This document shows, piece by piece, positions 10,082 to 59,579 of a DNA stretch of 64,000 nt (position 1 is the first letter of the stretch; each line of letters begins with the position of its first letter). The stretch covers positions 42,560 through 106,559 of the forward strand of contig JACPLD010000001.1 of assembly GCA_016186765.1 (NCBI GenBank). Direction: 5' to 3'. The notes beneath the pieces were generated by a model. The model was given only the letters and a program-made list of their open reading frames with translations. It ran no database searches and had not been told where the DNA came from. Source of the DNA: Candidatus Kaiserbacteria bacterium (GTDB lineage: Bacteria > Patescibacteriota > Minisyncoccia > Phycocordibacterales > UBA2100). The position numbers and the translations under genes were made by a program.

Positions 10082-11053
10082 ATGGCGCGCACGATCGTCG
10101 GTGTGCTGCGGGGAGGCACGTCGAGCGAGTACCCACTTTCTCTGAAGACGGGAGCTGCGATCGTGGCTGCTCTCCCGCAAGAGCGGTATGAGACGCGCGA
10201 CATACTCATCGACAAGCGCGGAGTGTGGCACCTGCGTGGCATGCCGTCGACTCCCGCTCACGCGCTCAGGCAGGTGGACGTTGTACTGAACGCGCTTCAC
10301 GGTGGCATAGGCGAGGACGGCACTGTGCAGCGGATATTGGAGCGCGCGGGTGTTGCGTATGCCGGTTCGCGCGCTCTTCCTGCAGCCCTATCGCTCAATA
10401 AGATCCGTGCACGCGAAGTCTTTACGGCGGCATCGATCCCGATGCCCCGCGCTGTCGCCTTTAGCTTGCACAATCAGATGGACACGCGCGAGATGGCGGA
10501 TGCCGTTTTCTCTCTCTTTGGCCCGCCATACATCGTGAAGCCGCCCTCTGAGGGTTCGTCGCACGGCATACGGTACGTAGCAACAATAGGAGCTTTGCCT
10601 GATGTGGTGGGAGACGTGCTCGACGAGTACGGTTCCGCGCTCGTTGAGGAGTACGTGCTCGGCGAGCATGCAACTATCGGGCTTATCGAAAATTTTCGTA
10701 ACGAGCAGCTCTACGCTCTGCCGGGAGCGCACATCGATCTTTCGGAAGGAATGCGCTACTTCGATCCAAACCAGGGGGACGAACGAGCACAACATCGTGT
10801 CCCGAGCACCTTTGCGCATGAGGTGAAGCAACGAATTGCAGATGTCGCAAGAAAGGCTCACCAAGCGCTGTCCCTCGCACATTTTTCGGACGCAGACCTC
10901 GTCGTCACCCGCCATGGTGTTTACTTGCTCGAGGTTAATGCTTCTCCGACGCTCCACGAAGACGCTGTCTTCCCGAAAATGCTCGAAGCCGTGGGCTCGT
11001 CGCTTACTGAATTTCTAGAGCATGCAATAGTGCTCGCGCGGAGAGGAATTTAA
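10082..11053 (+). CDS. ddl: D-alanine--D-alanine ligase
   Basis: MARTIVGVLRGGTSSEY.. N-terminus and ATP-grasp body (PPYIVKPPSEGSSHGI, LEVNASPTL); ATG 10082 preferred over the TTG at 10043. Confidence 0.85.
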   Translation: MARTIVGVLRGGTSSEYPLSLKTGAAIVAALPQERYETRDILIDKRGVWHLRGMPSTPAHALRQVDVVLNALHGGIGEDGTVQRILERAGVAYAGSRALPAALSLNKIRAREVFTAASIPMPRAVAFSLHNQMDTREMADAVFSLFGPPYIVKPPSEGSSHGIRYVATIGALPDVVGDVLDEYGSALVEEYVLGEHATIGLIENFRNEQLYALPGAHIDLSEGMRYFDPNQGDERAQHRVPSTFAHEVKQRIADVARKAHQALSLAHFSDADLVVTRHGVYLLEVNASPTLHEDAVFPKMLEAVGSSLTEFLEHAIVLARRGI

Positions 11054-11116
11054 GTTGTCGCAGCGGGAATGGTTTTGCTGCTTTTGTCTTTCGCTGCTAC
11101 ATTGCTGTCGTGAGGG

Positions 11117-11189
11117 GGGCCGGTAGTTCAGTGGTAGAATGCCTCATTTGCAATGAGGATGTCGCGGGTCCGATTCCCGCCCGGTCCAC
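11117..11189 (+). tRNA. tRNA-Ala (anticodon TGC)
   Basis: Manual cloverleaf: acceptor GGGCCGG/CCGGTCC with the G3:U70 Ala identity pair; D-arm GTTCAGTGGTAGAAT; anticodon stem CCTCA/TGAGG with loop TTTGCAA; T-arm GCGGG-TCCGATT-CCCGC; discriminator A. The 3' end is CC then C, so CCA is not fully encoded. Confidence 0.8.
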
Positions 11190-12694
11190 CCGATTTGATT
11201 TGACGAAGAATGCAACCCGCGCGCGGCGGAGCCGCGCGCATGGAGTGGCATTTCCGCAAGGAAATGCCACGGCTTTCCGAATTCCCCCGCCAGAATTCCC
11301 GCCGCTATGCGGCGGTTCGAGCCTATGTCCATCAGAAAATCTTTCATCCCCGAAAGATTTTCTGCCTTAATGAGATTTTCGGCTTGGTTGGCCTCTAAAA
11401 TCCAATTACGCATGAGTTCGAGCCAATGATTGCCTTTGCGTTCAAAATCAGTCAATTTTTCCTCCAGAGTCTTCTTTTCCGACATCAGCGCGTTCTTGCG
11501 CTCCAAGTACTCGCCAAGTTCCAACGCCTCTGCGAGATACGCATCTGTGAGCCGCTCCAAACGCGCTGCAATGGCGGAAATATCATTTTTGAGATTTTGA
11601 ACGAAAAGCCCGGACGATTGGCGGGATTCCGTTTGCTCGCTTTCGAGGCGAGCAATATATTTGTCCCGCCATTCGTCAGGCAAAGAAACTTTTTGACACA
11701 TGGTTTGCACTTGTTTCGCCAATTCTTCTTCCCGCAAAAAGCGAGTTTGGGAACATTTTTGAGTGCGGCTCTTGAAGGTACAGTGGTAGTAGTGATACAC
11801 ACGACCACTCCGTTTAATCTTCCTTTCCGCCGTAATCGCATAGCCGCACTCACCGCACGTTGCAAAACCGAGAAATTGGAAGTTTTTTGGTCCTCGCTTT
11901 TTGCGGGGCTTTCCATTGGCGACAAGTGCTTCCTGTATCTTGTCAAAAAGTTTCTTTGTAATCATTGGCTTGTGCGATCCGGCATGCACCTCGCCCCGAT
12001 AGCGGAAATGGCCGTAGTAAAACGGATTGTCGAGTATGTGAGAAATCGAAGCGAGGGCGAGGGGCTTGCCGGTCTTGCCAACCAAACCGACAAAAAACAT
12101 TTTGCGCTGAATCCCAGTGAGCGTGAACTGCCCCGTAGCAAAAGCCCCTAAACACTCCTTTACTTTGCCAAAGGTTTTTCTATCAGGTTCAATCGTCCGA
12201 AGTCGCGGCTCGTTGAAATATCCGAGAGGGGCTTTTGCCGATAACTCACCACGGCGTATCTTTTGGCGAATACCGCGCAAAATGTTTTCTCGCAAATTGT
12301 CGGTGTAATATTTTGCTTGACCGAACGCCACAGACAACATGAATTTACCCTGTGGCGTCGGCTCAAACCAAAATGTAGGGAATTTTAGCGTGGTAATTTT
12401 GCCAGTGTCCACTAAATAAATCACTCTGCCGCCGTCTACGCTGTTGCGCGCCAATCTATCAGGGTTCCACGCTAAAATTCCCTGTGCGGTGCCTTTTTCA
12501 ATTTCGCCAAGCATTTCGTTAAATACTTCACGACCCGGCTCCTTGGCGGTTTTCGATTCGTAATATTCTTTTACCACGAACAGATTTTGTTGCTTGGCGA
12601 ATTCCCGAAGCTCCGTTAGCTGCGCCTCAATACTCAAAACTTGGCGTTCTTCGTCCTCGCTTGATTTACGGCAATAGATAAAATATTTTGTCAT
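11144..12694 (-). CDS. large serine recombinase (resolvase catalytic domain, recombinase domain, zinc ribbon, coiled coil); 3' end uncertain because the ORF reads through the 133-bp inverted repeat and antisense into tRNA-Ala
   Basis: MTKYFIYCRKSSEDEERQVLSIEAQ.. catalytic Ser region; Cys cluster CGECGYAITAE..YHYYHC; long coiled-coil tail. Start taken at MTKYFIY (12694). The last ~45 codons lie inside inverted-repeat copy A. Confidence 0.85.
   Translation of the reverse strand: MTKYFIYCRKSSEDEERQVLSIEAQLTELREFAKQQNLFVVKEYYESKTAKEPGREVFNEMLGEIEKGTAQGILAWNPDRLARNSVDGGRVIYLVDTGKITTLKFPTFWFEPTPQGKFMLSVAFGQAKYYTDNLRENILRGIRQKIRRGELSAKAPLGYFNEPRLRTIEPDRKTFGKVKECLGAFATGQFTLTGIQRKMFFVGLVGKTGKPLALASISHILDNPFYYGHFRYRGEVHAGSHKPMITKKLFDKIQEALVANGKPRKKRGPKNFQFLGFATCGECGYAITAERKIKRSGRVYHYYHCTFKSRTQKCSQTRFLREEELAKQVQTMCQKVSLPDEWRDKYIARLESEQTESRQSSGLFVQNLKNDISAIAARLERLTDAYLAEALELGEYLERKNALMSEKKTLEEKLTDFERKGNHWLELMRNWILEANQAENLIKAENLSGMKDFLMDIGSNRRIAAGILAGEFGKPWHFLAEMPLHARGSAARGLHSSSNQIGWTGRESDPRHPHCK
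11186..11318. repeat. inverted-repeat copy A (133 bp), a perfect reverse complement of 12856..12988; starts at the CCACC core that ends tRNA-Ala
   Basis: Base-by-base comparison: ccacccgatttgatttgacgaagaatgcaacccgcgcgcggcggagccgcgcgcatgg...ccgccgctatgcggcggttc equals the reverse complement of 12856..12988. Confidence 0.9.
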
Positions 12695-12855
12695 AGCTTC
12701 GGGTTGAAAAAGCACCGCACCTTACACCGACAATTTGCAATCTCATTATATATCAAATCTGATTCGCGTTTCGCCTTTTGCTCTTGGCGAAATGCGAAAC
12801 CGAAATGTATTTTGTCATCGGCTCATGCGCGAAGCGCGTCCCATGCTTGCATGGG

Positions 12856-12988
12856 GAACCGCCGCATAGCGGCGGGAATTCTGGCGGGGGAATTCGGAAA
12901 GCCGTGGCATTTCCTTGCGGAAATGCCACTCCATGCGCGCGGCTCCGCCGCGCGCGGGTTGCATTCTTCGTCAAATCAAATCGGGTGG
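12856..12988. repeat. inverted-repeat copy B (133 bp), perfect reverse complement of 11186..11318; flanks the recombinase gene on its 5' side
   Basis: See copy A; the translated ORFs on both strands (12704..13033+, 12753..12992-) reproduce the same peptide strings as at 11186..11318. Confidence 0.9.
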
Positions 12989-13124
12989 TCATTGTATCAA
13001 AAAGTCAGAACCCACTTCCAGCAGAACCCCTGATTTCGCACGCTCCGCGTGCGTGGTGGTTTGACCCAAAAAAAGTACGCTCCGATCGCCCAGAACCCCG
13101 CCACGCGCGGAGTACCGCGCGTCC
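12984..13124. repeat. inverted-repeat R' (141 bp including a 48-bp insert 13015..13062), reverse complement of 14592..14684; shares the GGTGG/CCACC core with copy B
   Basis: 12984..13014 equals the reverse complement of 14654..14684 (31/31), and 13063..13124 equals the reverse complement of 14592..14653 (62/62). The 48-bp insert carries the palindrome CGCACGC-TCC-GCGTGCG. Confidence 0.85.
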
Positions 13125-13229
13125 GGCGGCAAAGGCGAGGGGCGGCGTCCACTATTCACACCTGTAAATTGCATGAAGAACGTGGTATTGTATTGGTGTA
13201 TTTATTAAATTGTCCCCACCTTTTTATTT

Positions 13230-14246
13230 ATGCAAAATCAACGAGGATACGTCGGTGTCGGAGTTTTGATAGCGATAATTTTGGGTATTGTTGTCGTCGG
13301 TGGTGGCGCATATTACGTCGTGCAACAACAAGCACCGACGCAAACCGTCTCGGAAAATTTTGATGATGTGCAAACATTGCCGACACAAAATACCGCTTCA
13401 AATAATGTATCGAATCCGCAACCTGTTCCAAAAGAGAATCCTTCCAAATCTCCATCTATCCAAGTAGTAGGAGACCTGTCTTTCTCACCGCCCGCATGGA
13501 ATAAGGACGCACAAGGAGCGTTCGTATCGTCCGATTACAAACAGGCCAGCCCTCCTGCAAAATTCGAACTCGGCATGGATTACAATCCTATTGCTAGAGG
13601 CGCCCAAATTGTCGTCTCACACAATGTTACCGAGGTAGCCAGTAACATCGATACATCCGAAGCATACGCGAACTTTCAATTCGCGCTTCTGCAAGATTGC
13701 AGCAATTGCAGTGGTGCGAAAAAAATGTCTATCGACGGAGTTCCGGCGGTCTTTTCTCATACGTCGTTTCCGGATCATGGAGGGTCAACCAGCATCAGCG
13801 GGAGATTCAATCACAAGAACTTCTATATCGCGGTGGTCTACGCGGGTTCGTATGCGGACGTGCAAGCCACATTCGAGCAACTCGTACAGAGCGTCTCCTT
13901 TCGAGGTCCGCGCGATTCCGTCGCTGCAACCGTAAAGCCGTCTGCAACTATCGATTCTCTCGTAATCACTCCCACAAACCGGACTATAACGGGTACAGCG
14001 ACGGGAGTATCGATTGTAAATGTGGGGCTTTATTATAAGTCGTCAGCATCTCCGCTTGGTTGGAAAATGGTTAGCGCAGAGTATTCAGGGCATTCGGAAC
14101 CAGTCGTGAACGGGCGTTGGCAATTCACCGTCTATGGAAGCGATATGGAATTAGTCAATGGCACGACAATTCGCGTCGGAATTGATGAAGGCAATGGCCA
14201 GTTTACTGAACTTGCGTCAGGAACCGTAATCGCAAAGAGTCAGTAG
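13230..14246 (+). CDS. hypothetical membrane-anchored/secreted protein (N-terminal TM anchor, S/T/N/P/Q-rich linker, beta-rich C-terminal domain); cargo of the tRNA-Ala element
   Basis: MQNQRGYVGVGVLIAIILGIVVVGGGAYYVV hydrophobic anchor, then TQNTASNNVSNPQPVPKENPSKSPS linker. Looks lower in GC than the flanks. Bounded by the R'/R inverted repeats. No recognisable family. Confidence 0.55.
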   Translation: MQNQRGYVGVGVLIAIILGIVVVGGGAYYVVQQQAPTQTVSENFDDVQTLPTQNTASNNVSNPQPVPKENPSKSPSIQVVGDLSFSPPAWNKDAQGAFVSSDYKQASPPAKFELGMDYNPIARGAQIVVSHNVTEVASNIDTSEAYANFQFALLQDCSNCSGAKKMSIDGVPAVFSHTSFPDHGGSTSISGRFNHKNFYIAVVYAGSYADVQATFEQLVQSVSFRGPRDSVAATVKPSATIDSLVITPTNRTITGTATGVSIVNVGLYYKSSASPLGWKMVSAEYSGHSEPVVNGRWQFTVYGSDMELVNGTTIRVGIDEGNGQFTELASGTVIAKSQ

Positions 14247-14265
14247 GTGAGCTTTAGCGAGGGAG

Positions 14266-14317
14266 CAGCCCTAGCCGTTTTATAATCGTCCTCAAAATGG
14301 CTAGGGCTGTTTGTGTG
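14266..14317 (+). terminator. intrinsic terminator candidate downstream of the cargo ORF
   Basis: Perfect 11-bp stem CAGCCCTAGCC...GGCTAGGGCTG with a 22-nt loop, followed by TTTGTGTG; begins 20 nt after the stop. Confidence 0.5.
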
Positions 14318-14591
14318 CGCATTGGGCGGGTGGGGCAAGCACATACAGATTTTGCGCCTCGCCATTCCTCAAAAAAAGAATACATGGCGAGGCTCCACTC
14401 TGTATTCCTGATTCTGTGCAAACGGCTCATTTGGTGTATTTGAGCCGTTTGCTCCTTATTGCATTTGAATCCCGCCCGCTTCCTTTTCTTAAAAAAAGGA
14501 AGCGCCGCCCCCCGCCTTTGCCGCCCATTCCTTTTTTCAAATCCCCCCCGCAAAAAATCAGAATGGAGAGGAGCGGCAAGGCGAGAGGGCG

Positions 14592-14684
14592 GGACGCGCG
14601 GTACTCCGCGCGTGGCGGGGTTCTGGGCGATCGGAGCGTACTTTTTTTGGGTCTGGGTTCTGACTTTTTGATACAATGACCACC
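14592..14684. repeat. inverted-repeat R (93 bp), partner of 12984..13124; ends in the CCACC core (14680..14684)
   Basis: See R' entry. Confidence 0.85.
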
Positions 14685-14836
14685 GGAGGAAGCACATTGA
14701 TGTGCTTCCGGCGGGAATCGGACGCCGGAGCGATGTGAGGCCAGTTGGCCGAACAGCGAGGCGGTGCCCAGCCCGAGGCGAGTGGCGACGAGCCGAGAGG
14801 CGAGGGAGATTCCCGCCCGGTCCACATTAATGCCTT

Positions 14837-14854
14837 ATAGGGTCTTTGTTGACG
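14837..14854 (+). repeat. 18-bp direct repeat of the tRNA-Ala 3' end (GATTCCCGCCCGGTCCAC, identical to 11172..11189)
   Basis: Exact 18/18 match, read directly; the flanking bases diverge. Confidence 0.8.
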
Positions 14855-14922
14855 GCTTCTTTTGTACGTGTTACAGAGCTTGTAGGGTCTCAGTGGAGAC
14901 CTGTAACGAGAGGAGTTGAGCC

Positions 14923-15321
14923 ATGCTTAGATTCAAAGTGAAGCTGGCATTAGGATTTCTCCTACTCGCCGGCCTTGGAGGGTTTGGCTTGGAGGAGCTG
15001 CTTTTCGGCGGCGGACTGTATTTAGATCCTCAAACGAAAGCCTTGCTGCCCGAGTCGGTCGCTTCCTCGGTCGCATTCCAAGGAAGGCCGGTCGTCATCG
15101 TTCTTGTCAAGGACCTAAAGGGCAGCGACGAGGTGGCCCGAGAAGTCATCAGGGCACAAATTGAAAGCCTCGAATCTGTCGAGCGTGCGATGGCATTCGA
15201 CGACGGTAGGGGCTTCGAGGTTCGCTTTGACCCCACCTTGACGAATTCTAATGACCTCGCAGACGAGATCGACCGGATCGTCGGAAACGCTCGGAAGACC
15301 TATGCCTATGCCAAAAACTGA
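14923..15321 (+). CDS. hypothetical small exported protein (N-terminal hydrophobic signal)
   Basis: Strong RBS GAGAGGAG 6 nt upstream of the ATG; MLRFKVKLALGFLLLAGLGGFG.. signal-like N-terminus. Confidence 0.5.
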   Translation: MLRFKVKLALGFLLLAGLGGFGLEELLFGGGLYLDPQTKALLPESVASSVAFQGRPVVIVLVKDLKGSDEVAREVIRAQIESLESVERAMAFDDGRGFEVRFDPTLTNSNDLADEIDRIVGNARKTYAYAKN

Positions 15322-58754: not shown

Positions 58755-59579
58755 ATGAAGACGAACCTTACAATACGAGTTCTCGCACTAAATTACATCG
58801 CTGCGGTCGTCGTTACGCTCATTGTCCTCTTTTTTGGGTTGCGTGGGACACTCTGGAGTGACTTATATGGAGTTTTGTTCCTGGGATTTATTCCAGTGTT
58901 CGGGGGCATACATGGGATTACCTTGGCAAAGGCATGGGGTGGATTTCAAAGTGCAGTCGGAAGGGGCATTATGTTGCTGTCCCTCGGTCTGATTTCATGG
59001 GGGATAGGCACCTATATTTTCTCCGGCGTGTACAATTTTATCCTCAGCGTCGAAGTTCCATACCCATCACTCGCAGATGTGGGATACATACTTGCACTCC
59101 CTCTCTGGGCAGCTGCGATGATACAGCTCTCGCGCGCGACCGGTGCAAAATATGGTCTTCGAAAGGGAAGTGGTAAGATCGCATTGCTCGCAATTCCTAC
59201 AGTTGTCATACTTATCTCATACTATCTACTCGTGGTCGTCGCACGAGGTGGAGCAATTCCCACTTCAGATGAAGGACTTCTCAAGTTGTTCTTCGACCTC
59301 GCTTACCCAATAGGCGATGTTGTTATTCTCACGCTCGCAACGCTCGTGTACGGTCTCTCGTACAGCTACTTTGGAGGCATGTACAAAAAAGCCATTTACA
59401 CTATTCTCTTTGGGTTCGTGCTCATGTATGTTGCCGACTTCTCTTTTTCATATACAACAACCTTGGAAACCTGGTATCCTGGTGATTGGGTAGACCTTCT
59501 GTTCACCACCGCGGTTCTTACTCTTGCACTCGGTGTTGCAATGCTCGATCCTCGAGCCCAACCCCAAACGAGAACGTAA
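58755..59579 (+). CDS. hypothetical integral membrane protein (7-8 TM)
   Basis: Hydrophobic profile only. Confidence 0.5.
   Translation: MKTNLTIRVLALNYIAAVVVTLIVLFFGLRGTLWSDLYGVLFLGFIPVFGGIHGITLAKAWGGFQSAVGRGIMLLSLGLISWGIGTYIFSGVYNFILSVEVPYPSLADVGYILALPLWAAAMIQLSRATGAKYGLRKGSGKIALLAIPTVVILISYYLLVVVARGGAIPTSDEGLLKLFFDLAYPIGDVVILTLATLVYGLSYSYFGGMYKKAIYTILFGFVLMYVADFSFSYTTTLETWYPGDWVDLLFTTAVLTLALGVAMLDPRAQPQTRT

Follow-up and report, generated by a model that had tools for sequence, protein, structure and literature searches.

Large serine recombinases that share a Resolvase, Recombinase and zinc-ribbon architecture include CcrAB and CcrC of SCCmec, the phage integrases of phiC31, Bxb1, A118 and SPbeta (SprA), and Anabaena XisF. 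Elements driven by such enzymes insert site-specifically at the 3' end of a conserved gene, and the staphylococcal cassette chromosome (SCC) is a small platform with interchangeable accessory cargo. The same recombinase architecture, the same kind of target and the same platform organization are found in a stretch of DNA from Candidatus Kaiserbacteria bacterium (assembly GCA_016186765.1, contig JACPLD010000001.1, positions 42,560 to 106,559), which was analysed at its full length of 64,000 nucleotides and is referred to here as the window. Positions 11186-14687 of the window probably form an integrative element of ~3.5 kb at the 3' end of a tRNA-Ala(UGC) gene, which is driven by a large serine recombinase and carries the open reading frame (ORF) at 13230-14246 as a single-gene payload. 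We give this reading, including the mechanism of attachment-site (att) arms that is described below, a probability of roughly 0.78.

The window element differs from SCC and phage integrase systems in several respects. Its recombinase is at most 29% identical to any phage or plasmid recombinase searched; it targets the acceptor end of tRNA-Ala; its putative attP lies within the recombinase ORF and is accompanied by a second, inverted and apparently intact attP; long inverted repeats surround both recombinase and cargo; and no directionality factor is recognisable. In SSV1-type archaeal integrases and in IntP/IntX of Myxococcus phage Mx8, attP lies within the int gene and integration alters or splits that gene. 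As in the window, the crossover falls inside the recombinase ORF, a tRNA is targeted and the C-terminus changes on integration, but those enzymes are tyrosine recombinases with long attP/attB identity, whereas a serine recombinase, a core of ~5 nt and displacement of only 16 codons are seen here. Tn4451 and Tn5397 resemble the window element in that a large serine recombinase (TnpX/TndX) is the sole mobility gene of a small cargo element without a separate directionality factor. Unlike the window element, they lack long terminal inverted repeats and target GA-containing sites instead of a tRNA end; for the window enzyme, excision and insertion are what we infer. Long inverted repeats are also known from invertible segments, namely the C segment of phage P1 (Cin), the G segment of Mu (Gin) and the yeast 2-micron circle (FLP). 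As here, the crossover site lies in long inverted repeats that bracket DNA beside or including the recombinase gene, and in an excised circle of the window element, as in the 2-micron circle, two inverted repeats would separate the segments. Enzyme class separates these systems from the window element, because Cin and Gin are small serine invertases that need an enhancer and Fis and FLP is a tyrosine recombinase. They also switch gene fusions or amplify copy number, neither of which is evident in the window.

Layout of the element at tRNA-Ala

The order of parts is tRNA, repeat arm A, recombinase (reading toward the tRNA), A', B, cargo (reading away from B), backbone segment PC, B' and host DNA, with ddl preceding the tRNA gene. 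The features are as follows (IR, inverted repeat; a slash within a sequence marks the putative crossover or the junction).

11117-11190, plus strand: tRNA-Ala(UGC), called by ARAGORN and matched by the Rfam tRNA model (68.7 bits); its 3' end GGTCCAC/C is the putative attachment site (left half of attB, attL junction)
11186-11318, minus strand: IR-A, which covers the final 133 nt of the recombinase body (~44 codons, NRRIAAG...NQIGW), meets the tRNA at the core CCACC and contains conserved hairpins
11144-12694, minus strand: large serine recombinase gene, 516 amino acids (aa) as now read, with the Pfam domains Resolvase, Recombinase and Zn_ribbon_recom
12695-12855, no strand assigned: region upstream of the recombinase and presumed promoter; a hairpin abuts IR-A', and a piece termed 'recup' is partly conserved elsewhere
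12856-12988, plus strand: IR-A', an inverted duplicate of the recombinase 3' body, which with IR-B makes an intact attP-like site with core GGTGG at 12984-12988
12981-13147, plus strand: IR-B, the native last 16 recombinase codons (WSLYQKVRTHFQQNP, stop at 13031-13033) and downstream non-coding DNA; left arm of the cargo repeat
13148-13229, plus strand: region upstream of the cargo, presumed promoter and 5' untranslated region, inside the repeats; it accompanies the gene family
13230-14246, plus strand: cargo ORF, 338 aa, ATG start, with a predicted transmembrane anchor (residues 8-33), disordered tether (~35-75), Mog1/PsbP/DcrB-like domain (78-225, with a DCSNC motif) and Ig-like domain (238-335)
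14259-14352, plus strand: PC, backbone segment after the cargo, with a terminator-like hairpin at 14266-14309 and a conserved stretch
14503-14687, minus strand: IR-B', the right arm, with the putative attR junction ...CAATGACCAC/CGGAGG and core at 14680-14684
14688-14832, no strand assigned: DNA beyond attR, in which part of the tRNA T-arm is repeated in inverted orientation (14695-14723) and 18 nt of the tRNA 3' end recur as a direct repeat (14808-14825)

IR-A and IR-A' form a 133-nt perfect inverted repeat that brackets the recombinase gene. The cargo is flanked by three repeat pairs (12981-13014/14654-14687, 34 nt, 97% identity; 13063-13127/14589-14653, 65 nt, 98%; 13125-13147/14503-14525, 23 nt, 96%), and no further copy of the A or B repeat occurs in the 64-kb window. 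The tRNA gene is intact after insertion according to both ARAGORN and Rfam. Beyond IR-A, the recombinase ORF continues into tRNA antisense sequence, which replaces the native tail of 16 codons. The junction between tRNA and A reads ...CCCGGTCCACC/CGATTTGATTTG, that between A' and B (reverse complement) reads ...ACAATGACCACC/CGATTTGATTTG, and that between B' and host DNA reads ...ACAATGACCACC/GGAGGAAGC, with CGGAGGAAGC as the host side from 14685 on. CCACC is the sole sequence common to the three junctions.

On the evidence of reading frames, A.B is the native 3' end of the recombinase ORF, with the shared core 16 codons ahead of the stop, because a recombinase remnant at another locus (L010, NCBI GCA_043747375.1) reads through A into B to end in ...NQFWWCLFEKVRTHFEQNP and a stop codon, and A'.B in the window encodes the like tail ...NQIGWSLYQKVRTHFQQNP, also followed by a stop. 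The start of B is conserved in >40 copies and the A'.B junction is kept in 32 loci. The repeats around the cargo are better explained as att-site arms than as a dedicated switch. Independent Logan assemblies reproduce the cargo and the junction of B' with host DNA, and two contigs (L093, L094) begin at 14655 and have the same attR junction. Logan contigs break inside the repeats, as expected of real repeats.

The recombinase has a resolvase catalytic domain at residues 5-150 (PF00239, E 5.5e-20) and a Y-x-R-x-S serine motif (FIYCRKSSEDEE), followed in its C-terminal part by Recombinase (PF07508, E 1.7e-8) and zinc-ribbon (PF13408, E 3.2e-8) domains. It aligns to the C-terminal domain of the A118 integrase and to the SPbeta integrase, with distant matches to XisF and Ccr. 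By domain content it is an intact large serine recombinase of the integrase type, which would catalyse recombination at these sites. The exact protein was not on record in a look-up, phage and plasmid collections gave no match above the 29% identity given above, and IMG/VR returned two partial matches at contig ends only and no circular copy. Three hairpins within coding arm A, which were specified by hand and tested directly, are kept across 23 distinct elements, with 80% of cells paired compared to 37-48% after sliding of the partners. In one GC stem of 9 bp, 6 of the 9 pairs have changed in a compensatory way (CG to GC or the reverse); for the entire A.B alignment, RNAalifold returned a weak consensus. 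This covariation is compatible with selection on DNA or RNA, on either strand, and does not reveal which.

A hairpin of variable sequence lies immediately outside IR-A' in each element. In an Rfam scan of 10800-15200 at E<=1 the tRNA alone scored, and the hairpin-rich repeats match no RNA family. Counts in a promoter and terminator consensus scan were not above those in shuffled sequences; only an outward-facing pair of terminator-like hairpins in B (13079-13096) and B' is suggestive. Two length differences were observed in the B arms. A 63-nt segment missing from window B at 13124/13125 is present in three Logan contigs (L001-L003) of a 100%-identical strain and also in relatives (L005, L010, L098), where it lies upstream of GGCGGCAAAGG. 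B' lacks a 48-nt segment (window 13015-13062) that has short direct repeats (G[A]ACCCA) on its borders. The two copies of 18 nt from the tRNA end were considered as the ends of the element, in the manner of a tyrosine integrase. They were rejected as the primary boundary, since the conserved backbone stops at 14684-14687 and duplications of this kind are not made by serine recombinases.

Relatives across Patescibacteria

A search of GTDB contigs, with one genome per species and with arm A excluded from the recombinase query, returned at least 564 relatives with 73-90% aa identity, and 80 loci were retrieved (L numbers denote loci and contigs, P numbers proteins). Nearly all relatives belong to Patescibacteria, where they span many named classes, and they include the complete Woesebacteria chromosome CP055308.1 and contigs of 300-600 kb. 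The A/A' repeat (124-133 nt) is present in ~60 of the 80 loci; its copies are 95-100% identical within a genome and ~70-75% identical between genomes. In 17 loci with both B copies, 1-5 kb of cargo lie between the B/B' repeats, which are 166-397 nt long and mostly 94-100% identical, with 86.7% in L091. The tRNA gene that abuts A is convergent with the recombinase and is a tRNA-Ala, of any isoacceptor, in ~55 loci, with a few tRNA-Val, -Ser, -Ile and -Glu genes. Its junction with A at other loci always resembles GGTCCACC/AAATTTGA. At the outer B' junction of the 17 loci, the base just outside GTGG varies, which places the crossover at or near CCAC/C, at the discriminator/CCA end of the tRNA. 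Many contigs stop 100-400 nt from the recombinase, as expected if assemblers break at these repeats.

Recombinase G+C content (GC) is 0.42 ± 0.03 against host flanks of 0.31-0.60. The element is AT-rich in its 54% GC host because recombinase GC stays at ~0.42 whatever the host, and this steadiness points to recent horizontal spread. An earlier note, made from the window sequence alone, had suggested that the ORF at 13230-14246 was acquired horizontally as cargo of a mobile element. The att-type junctions at tRNA-Ala, the intact adjoining recombinase and the backbone shared with unrelated cargo bear this out.

None of the 80 loci carries the window cargo or its leader. The PC segment is 79-93% conserved in elements with different cargo (L014, L015 and L019), and it also occurs, in reverse orientation, in L026. 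The cargo that could be named comprises NUDIX and HAM1 hydrolases (L014), an Erm-type 23S rRNA adenine methylase with an APH-family phosphotransferase (L015, 3322-5239), GrpB and DUF218 proteins (L017), C5-methylases (L040, L052), OLD-family ATPase-nucleases (L052, L080, L092), a PAP2/LssY membrane protein (L055), a Na/Ca exchanger (L061) and a trypsin-like protease (L066). Restriction-modification (RM) genes are frequent. These gene families are typical of accessory and defence cargo. The L015 element, which lies in a metagenome-assembled genome (MAG), places antibiotic-resistance-type genes on a mobile element of the candidate phyla radiation (CPR).

Five Patescibacteria-type recombinases with a tRNA-Ala or tRNA-Val junction (L016, L029, L049, L065, L078) occur in MAGs labelled Gammaproteobacteria, Rickettsia, Bdellovibrionales or Proteobacteria, on contigs of 1.8-27 kb, four of them at most 5 kb long. 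These labels probably reflect mis-binning of a repeat-bounded element. Two recombinase copies on separate contigs of one MAG were observed three times (L067/L070, L056/L064, L060/L084), which would fit a genome in which several tRNA-Ala genes are occupied. Full-text literature searching did not find a description of the element, which appears to be widespread in CPR genomes and, as far as found, undescribed.

The cargo protein and its family

The cargo ORF lies on the plus strand at 13230-14246, as the earlier note had placed it, and it differs from its surroundings in composition. Compared to 48 long ORFs in the window (mean GC 0.548 ± 0.029; mean GC at third codon positions, GC3, 0.627 ± 0.056), it has a GC of 0.487 (z = -2.1) and a GC3 of 0.469 (z = -2.8), the lowest GC3 of the 48. 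The recombinase gene has a GC of 0.488 (z = -2.0). By codon-usage distance the cargo ranks as the 8th and the recombinase as the 7th most deviant of the 48. The description of both genes as AT-richer in the earlier note therefore holds, albeit modestly (GC z of about -2, cargo GC3 the minimum of 48). Another ORF in the window, at 58755-59579 (274 aa, GC 0.484, GC3 0.491, no Pfam match), is a possible second foreign gene.

The cargo N-terminus reads MQNQRGYVGVGV..., also given as MQNQRGYVGVGVLIAIILGIVVVGGGAYYVV, and as MQNQRG/YVGVGV in the comparison with the pilin signal. The protein has no match in Pfam or NCBIfam, including Pfam PsbP and PsbP_2. Nothing significant was found in a Pfam scan of 21 family members, where a weak PsbP match (E 0.003) appeared in only one of the 21, or in a sequence-profile search of the PDB. 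An AlphaFold 2 model built on a 28-sequence alignment has a predicted local distance difference test score (pLDDT) of 81.7, with >90 across most of residues 80-225; a single-sequence run (pLDDT 41) was unusable, and the alignment-based run was used instead. The model has a helix at residues 8-33, a low-confidence, low-complexity tether from residue 35 that ends at ~62-75, an alpha/beta sandwich at 78-225 and an Ig-like beta-sandwich at 238-335. The N-terminal anchor and low-complexity linker of the earlier note are therefore retained in the model, and its single beta-rich domain of ~230 aa becomes two predicted domains.

The best Foldseek matches in the PDB are Apa of M. tuberculosis (5zx9, E 2e-5), PsbP (4rti, 1e-4) and Salmonella DcrB (6e8a, 5e-4), all with probability 1.0. 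Plant and cyanobacterial PsbP proteins (PsbP, CyanoP) match at E 1e-4 to 5e-4, followed by Mog1, Tsi3 and EagT6. All top matches have the Mog1/PsbP-type fold (E 2e-5 to 3e-3, probability 0.99-1.0, target-normalised template modelling score, TM, 0.34-0.57). That the protein has no recognisable domain, as first described, holds for sequence families and fails for structure, where Mog1/PsbP-type and Ig-like folds are predicted. Extracytoplasmic proteins of the Mog1/PsbP/DcrB/Apa fold are like cargo residues 78-225 in predicted fold, and DcrB, LpqN-type proteins and Apa share its membrane-tethered, extracytoplasmic setting. The cargo differs from them in lacking sequence-level membership, in its own DCSNC motif and in its added Ig-like domain.

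A pilin had been dismissed from the start, and rightly: the prepilin motif G/F(T/S)LIE with Glu5 is missing from the N-terminus, PF07963 does not match, and in the model a disordered linker of ~30-45 aa parts helix 8-33 from the first domain, so that the helix is not packed on a globular head. As modelled, the cargo is a single-pass, membrane-tethered envelope protein with its N-terminus inside and C-terminus outside. A role in cell-envelope or cell-contact binding is likely, because domains of the Mog1/PsbP/DcrB/Apa and Ig-like types are generic binding modules.

An exhaustive HMMER scan that covered 1.8 billion representatives found ~20 relatives of the middle domain, mostly of 220-240 aa with an N-terminal transmembrane segment, which keep a DCSNC...GVPA...GG motif; P0033 shares the three-part architecture of the cargo. 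Only P0047 was gained in a second, word-indexed search that used the alignment. Among the 25 matches of the first search, P0001 is 92% identical to the cargo over its full length. The others have little in common with it beyond the N-terminus, save for an Ig-like C-terminal module (ATIDSL...TITGTA.GVS...VVNGRWS) that also occurs in P0002, P0003, P0005 and P0022. Identity across matches in the initial ~55 residues (MQNQRGFVGVGVLIAIL.G..VLGGGAYYVVQQQAPTQTASENFDN.QTLPT) is mostly 55-83%, with 46-51% in three, and the ectodomains are otherwise unrelated. The cargo gene is, by these alignments, part of a mosaic family of tethered envelope proteins, because its members share an N-terminus and differ in their ectodomains.

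Genomic settings link this family to the element. Remnants of the backbone (B, A, tRNA-Ala or truncated recombinase) occur at five of the six homologue loci for which DNA was available: host DNA, B and P0001 (L005); host DNA, B, P0022, a truncated recombinase and A.B (L010); host DNA, B, P0010 and then an inverted B (L098); tRNA-Ala abutting an A remnant, with B and P0015 following (L009); and P0019 followed by an inverted B (L097). L012 is the only leader-family locus without backbone. The search for homologues next to serine recombinases or inverted repeats, which the earlier note had proposed, was thus positive at all leader-family loci but this one. A 317-nt leader query from L005, which includes the stretch equivalent to 13148-13229, is kept upstream of family members in L005, L009, L010 and L098; in L012 the match consists solely of a 71.6% alignment of 13165-13367.

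Some family members lie in housekeeping surroundings, after an aldolase gene (L009, L098) or near IF-2/RbfA (L010, L012), as they would if the cargo were an ordinary chromosomal envelope gene with incidental or artefactual repeats and recombinase; the disagreement between the window and Logan contigs at 13124/13125 could be read in the same way. However, with the exception of L012, these housekeeping loci themselves carry backbone remnants, the attR junction and cargo contigs recur in independent assemblies, the architecture is repeated in dozens of genomes, including the complete chromosome CP055308.1, and the cargo is an outlier in GC and GC3. An ordinary chromosomal gene is largely refuted by this evidence and is very improbable.

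Two loci with housekeeping surroundings, L009 and L098, are syntenic up to the aldolase gene (MreB-MreC-PBP-GreA-IMPase-aldolase). Past the aldolase, L009 has P0015 preceded by tRNA-Ala and L098 has P0010 without a tRNA, and the site appears to be a hotspot for exchanging envelope genes. In L006 and L007, the last ~120 nt diverge downstream of the 92%-identical cargo homologue, and their end resembles, by eye only, the C-terminus of an IS110-family transposase (...LRRQLVNVIWCMLKYKTVYRS, then a stop).

Proposed recombination at the twin att sites

In the mechanism that we propose, attP would lie inside the 3' end of the recombinase ORF and would be made up of arm A (133 nt at the end of the ORF body), the core CCAC/C and arm B (the last 16 codons and downstream DNA). 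Its partner would be the universally conserved acceptor end of tRNA-Ala (GGTCCAC/C). Integration of a circular intermediate would cut attP into the junction of tRNA with A (attL) and the junction of B' with host DNA (attR). A second, intact and inverted attP copy (A'.B) would lie between recombinase and cargo, which would explain why each of the two genes is bracketed by inverted repeats. The second attP, or the long repeats alone, would permit inversion of either segment, and recombination with a second tRNA-Ala gene would part the recombinase module from the cargo module. A purely speculative idea is that a duplex attP could be restored when A folds back on A' and B on B' in single-stranded DNA.

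JGI metagenomes were scanned for a tRNA end with A, followed by the side away from the recombinase, which gave 16 contigs. The recombinase module of L101 has a tRNA-Ala gene on either side (CGC and UGC); the two tRNA genes are convergent, and each abuts a copy of A. In L105 the module lies between tRNA-Val and tRNA-Ala, and the last letters of the L087 contig, ...GGTGGACC, are a tRNA 3' end in reverse complement. Such two-tRNA modules are what recombination of A'.B with a second tRNA gene would give, and the second site seems to be in use. The same recombination would account for orphan cargo modules bounded by host DNA and B, which are found as B-cargo-B' or as host DNA, B and cargo (L098, L005, L010). 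L018, L086 and L087 had been considered as isomers with a flipped recombinase; L087 was dismissed because it has a tRNA on both sides instead, and L018 and L086 end inside IR-A and are compatible with either a flipped or a two-tRNA arrangement.

The separate occurrence of the modules (recombinase between tRNAs in L101 and L105, cargo alone in L098) could also be explained by two adjacent transposon-like modules, an autonomous A-recombinase-A' and a non-autonomous B-cargo-B', that are moved by a TnpX/TndX-type transposase able to recombine any ends or joints without strict attP x attB directionality. Each module has its own inverted repeats that end at the core, no directionality factor is present, and several genomes have multiple copies, as in the paired contigs L067/L070, L056/L064 and L060/L084. 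The module ends are, however, halves of a single gene end, because a continuous, conserved reading frame spans A.B up to a stop that is also conserved, and the ends of the recombinase module were found joined to tRNA 3' ends or to B and to no other targets. Two modules are unlikely on this evidence, and the explanation differs from the att-arm mechanism mostly in the directionality of the enzyme.

The earlier note had envisaged a phase-variable surface determinant on a possibly invertible cassette. In that case, the recombinase would flip B-cargo-B' and switch the surface protein on or off. Inverted repeats do bracket the cargo beside a serine recombinase, and orientation varies between genomes: in 11 loci the cargo genes read in the sense of the internal B, and in 3-4 in that of the outer B'. 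Compared to the window, L014, L015 and L019, both PC and cargo are inverted in L026, where PC adjoins the internal B in opposite orientation and the cargo gene converges on it. RM genes often occur as cargo, and phase-variable RM systems are known. These points agree with the invertible part of the suggestion, but orientation differences are seen between genomes only, with Logan contigs breaking inside the repeats, and a regulatory on/off role is unsupported. A flip would not obviously disconnect the promoter because ~80 nt upstream of the ORF lie within the repeats; this family-specific region (13148-13229) stays with the gene even without the element, in L012. No ORF crosses the repeat boundaries (13147 or 14503) into the cargo, nor does a consensus promoter in a scan that performed at chance level, and both repeat arms are symmetric toward the interior, so that the same outer sequence lies upstream in either orientation. 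The cargo-flanking repeats are the recombinase gene's own 3' end and are present whatever the cargo. The recombinase, at 516 aa with Recombinase and zinc-ribbon domains, is not a Hin/Gin-type invertase of ~190 aa with a C-terminal helix-turn-helix. A phase-variable switch is quite improbable; inversions in the course of evolution are likely, through the enzyme or through homologous recombination between repeats of 130-400 nt.

Several observations weigh against a tRNA-Ala-targeting integrative element with att arms. The B arm is 63 nt short compared to the three same-strain Logan contigs, through a local assembly problem or population heterogeneity, and orientation calls across perfect repeats in short-read MAGs may be wrong. 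The 18-nt perfect direct repeat of the tRNA end (GATTCCCGCCCGGTCCAC; 11172-11189/14808-14825) and the inverted T-arm fragment at 14695-14723, both beyond attR, are unpredicted by serine-integrase insertion; they may be the scar of an older insertion of a tRNA-targeting island. No empty attB allele or excised circle was observed, and the circle junction would equal the A'.B junction, so that the two are indistinguishable in short contigs. Excision by canonical serine integrases, which recombine attP with attB through a 2-bp crossover and in one direction, depends on a directionality factor, and the element has no identifiable one. Arm A, at 133 nt, far exceeds a normal attP half-site, and the purpose of the duplicated A' is unexplained. 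Cargo function is drawn from fold similarity alone, with target-normalised TM scores of 0.31-0.57 among matches at E<=0.001 (0.47 for Apa, 0.40 for PsbP and 0.34 for DcrB).

Tentatively, the integrative element could represent an undescribed gene shuttle of Patescibacteria that consists of one recombinase and a payload, targets the tRNA-Ala acceptor end and uses twin inverted attP sites for inversion, module splitting and payload swapping without a directionality factor. In the host lineage of the window, such a shuttle could diversify the surface of an episymbiont through envelope payloads with a near-identical 5' leader and different ectodomains, and could offer a ready-made integration tool for CPR bacteria. 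We regard this wider proposal as possible, although the odds are somewhat against it.

Patescibacteria have tiny genomes and are mostly uncultured, their gene exchange is poorly understood and few genetic tools are available for them. A recombinase family that is 73-90% identical across many CPR classes, with defence, resistance-type and envelope cargo, would be a major and simple route of gene transfer. An attP that lies inside the recombinase ORF and is duplicated in inverted orientation would be a testable mechanistic puzzle for serine-integrase biology, and site-specific integration in CPR hosts could make use of the tRNA-Ala att pair. The cargo now has a concrete model as a predicted tethered envelope protein with PsbP/DcrB-like and Ig-like domains from a mosaic family. 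The cargo gene alone is of modest interest; it is the element family and its twin-attP layout that merit attention.

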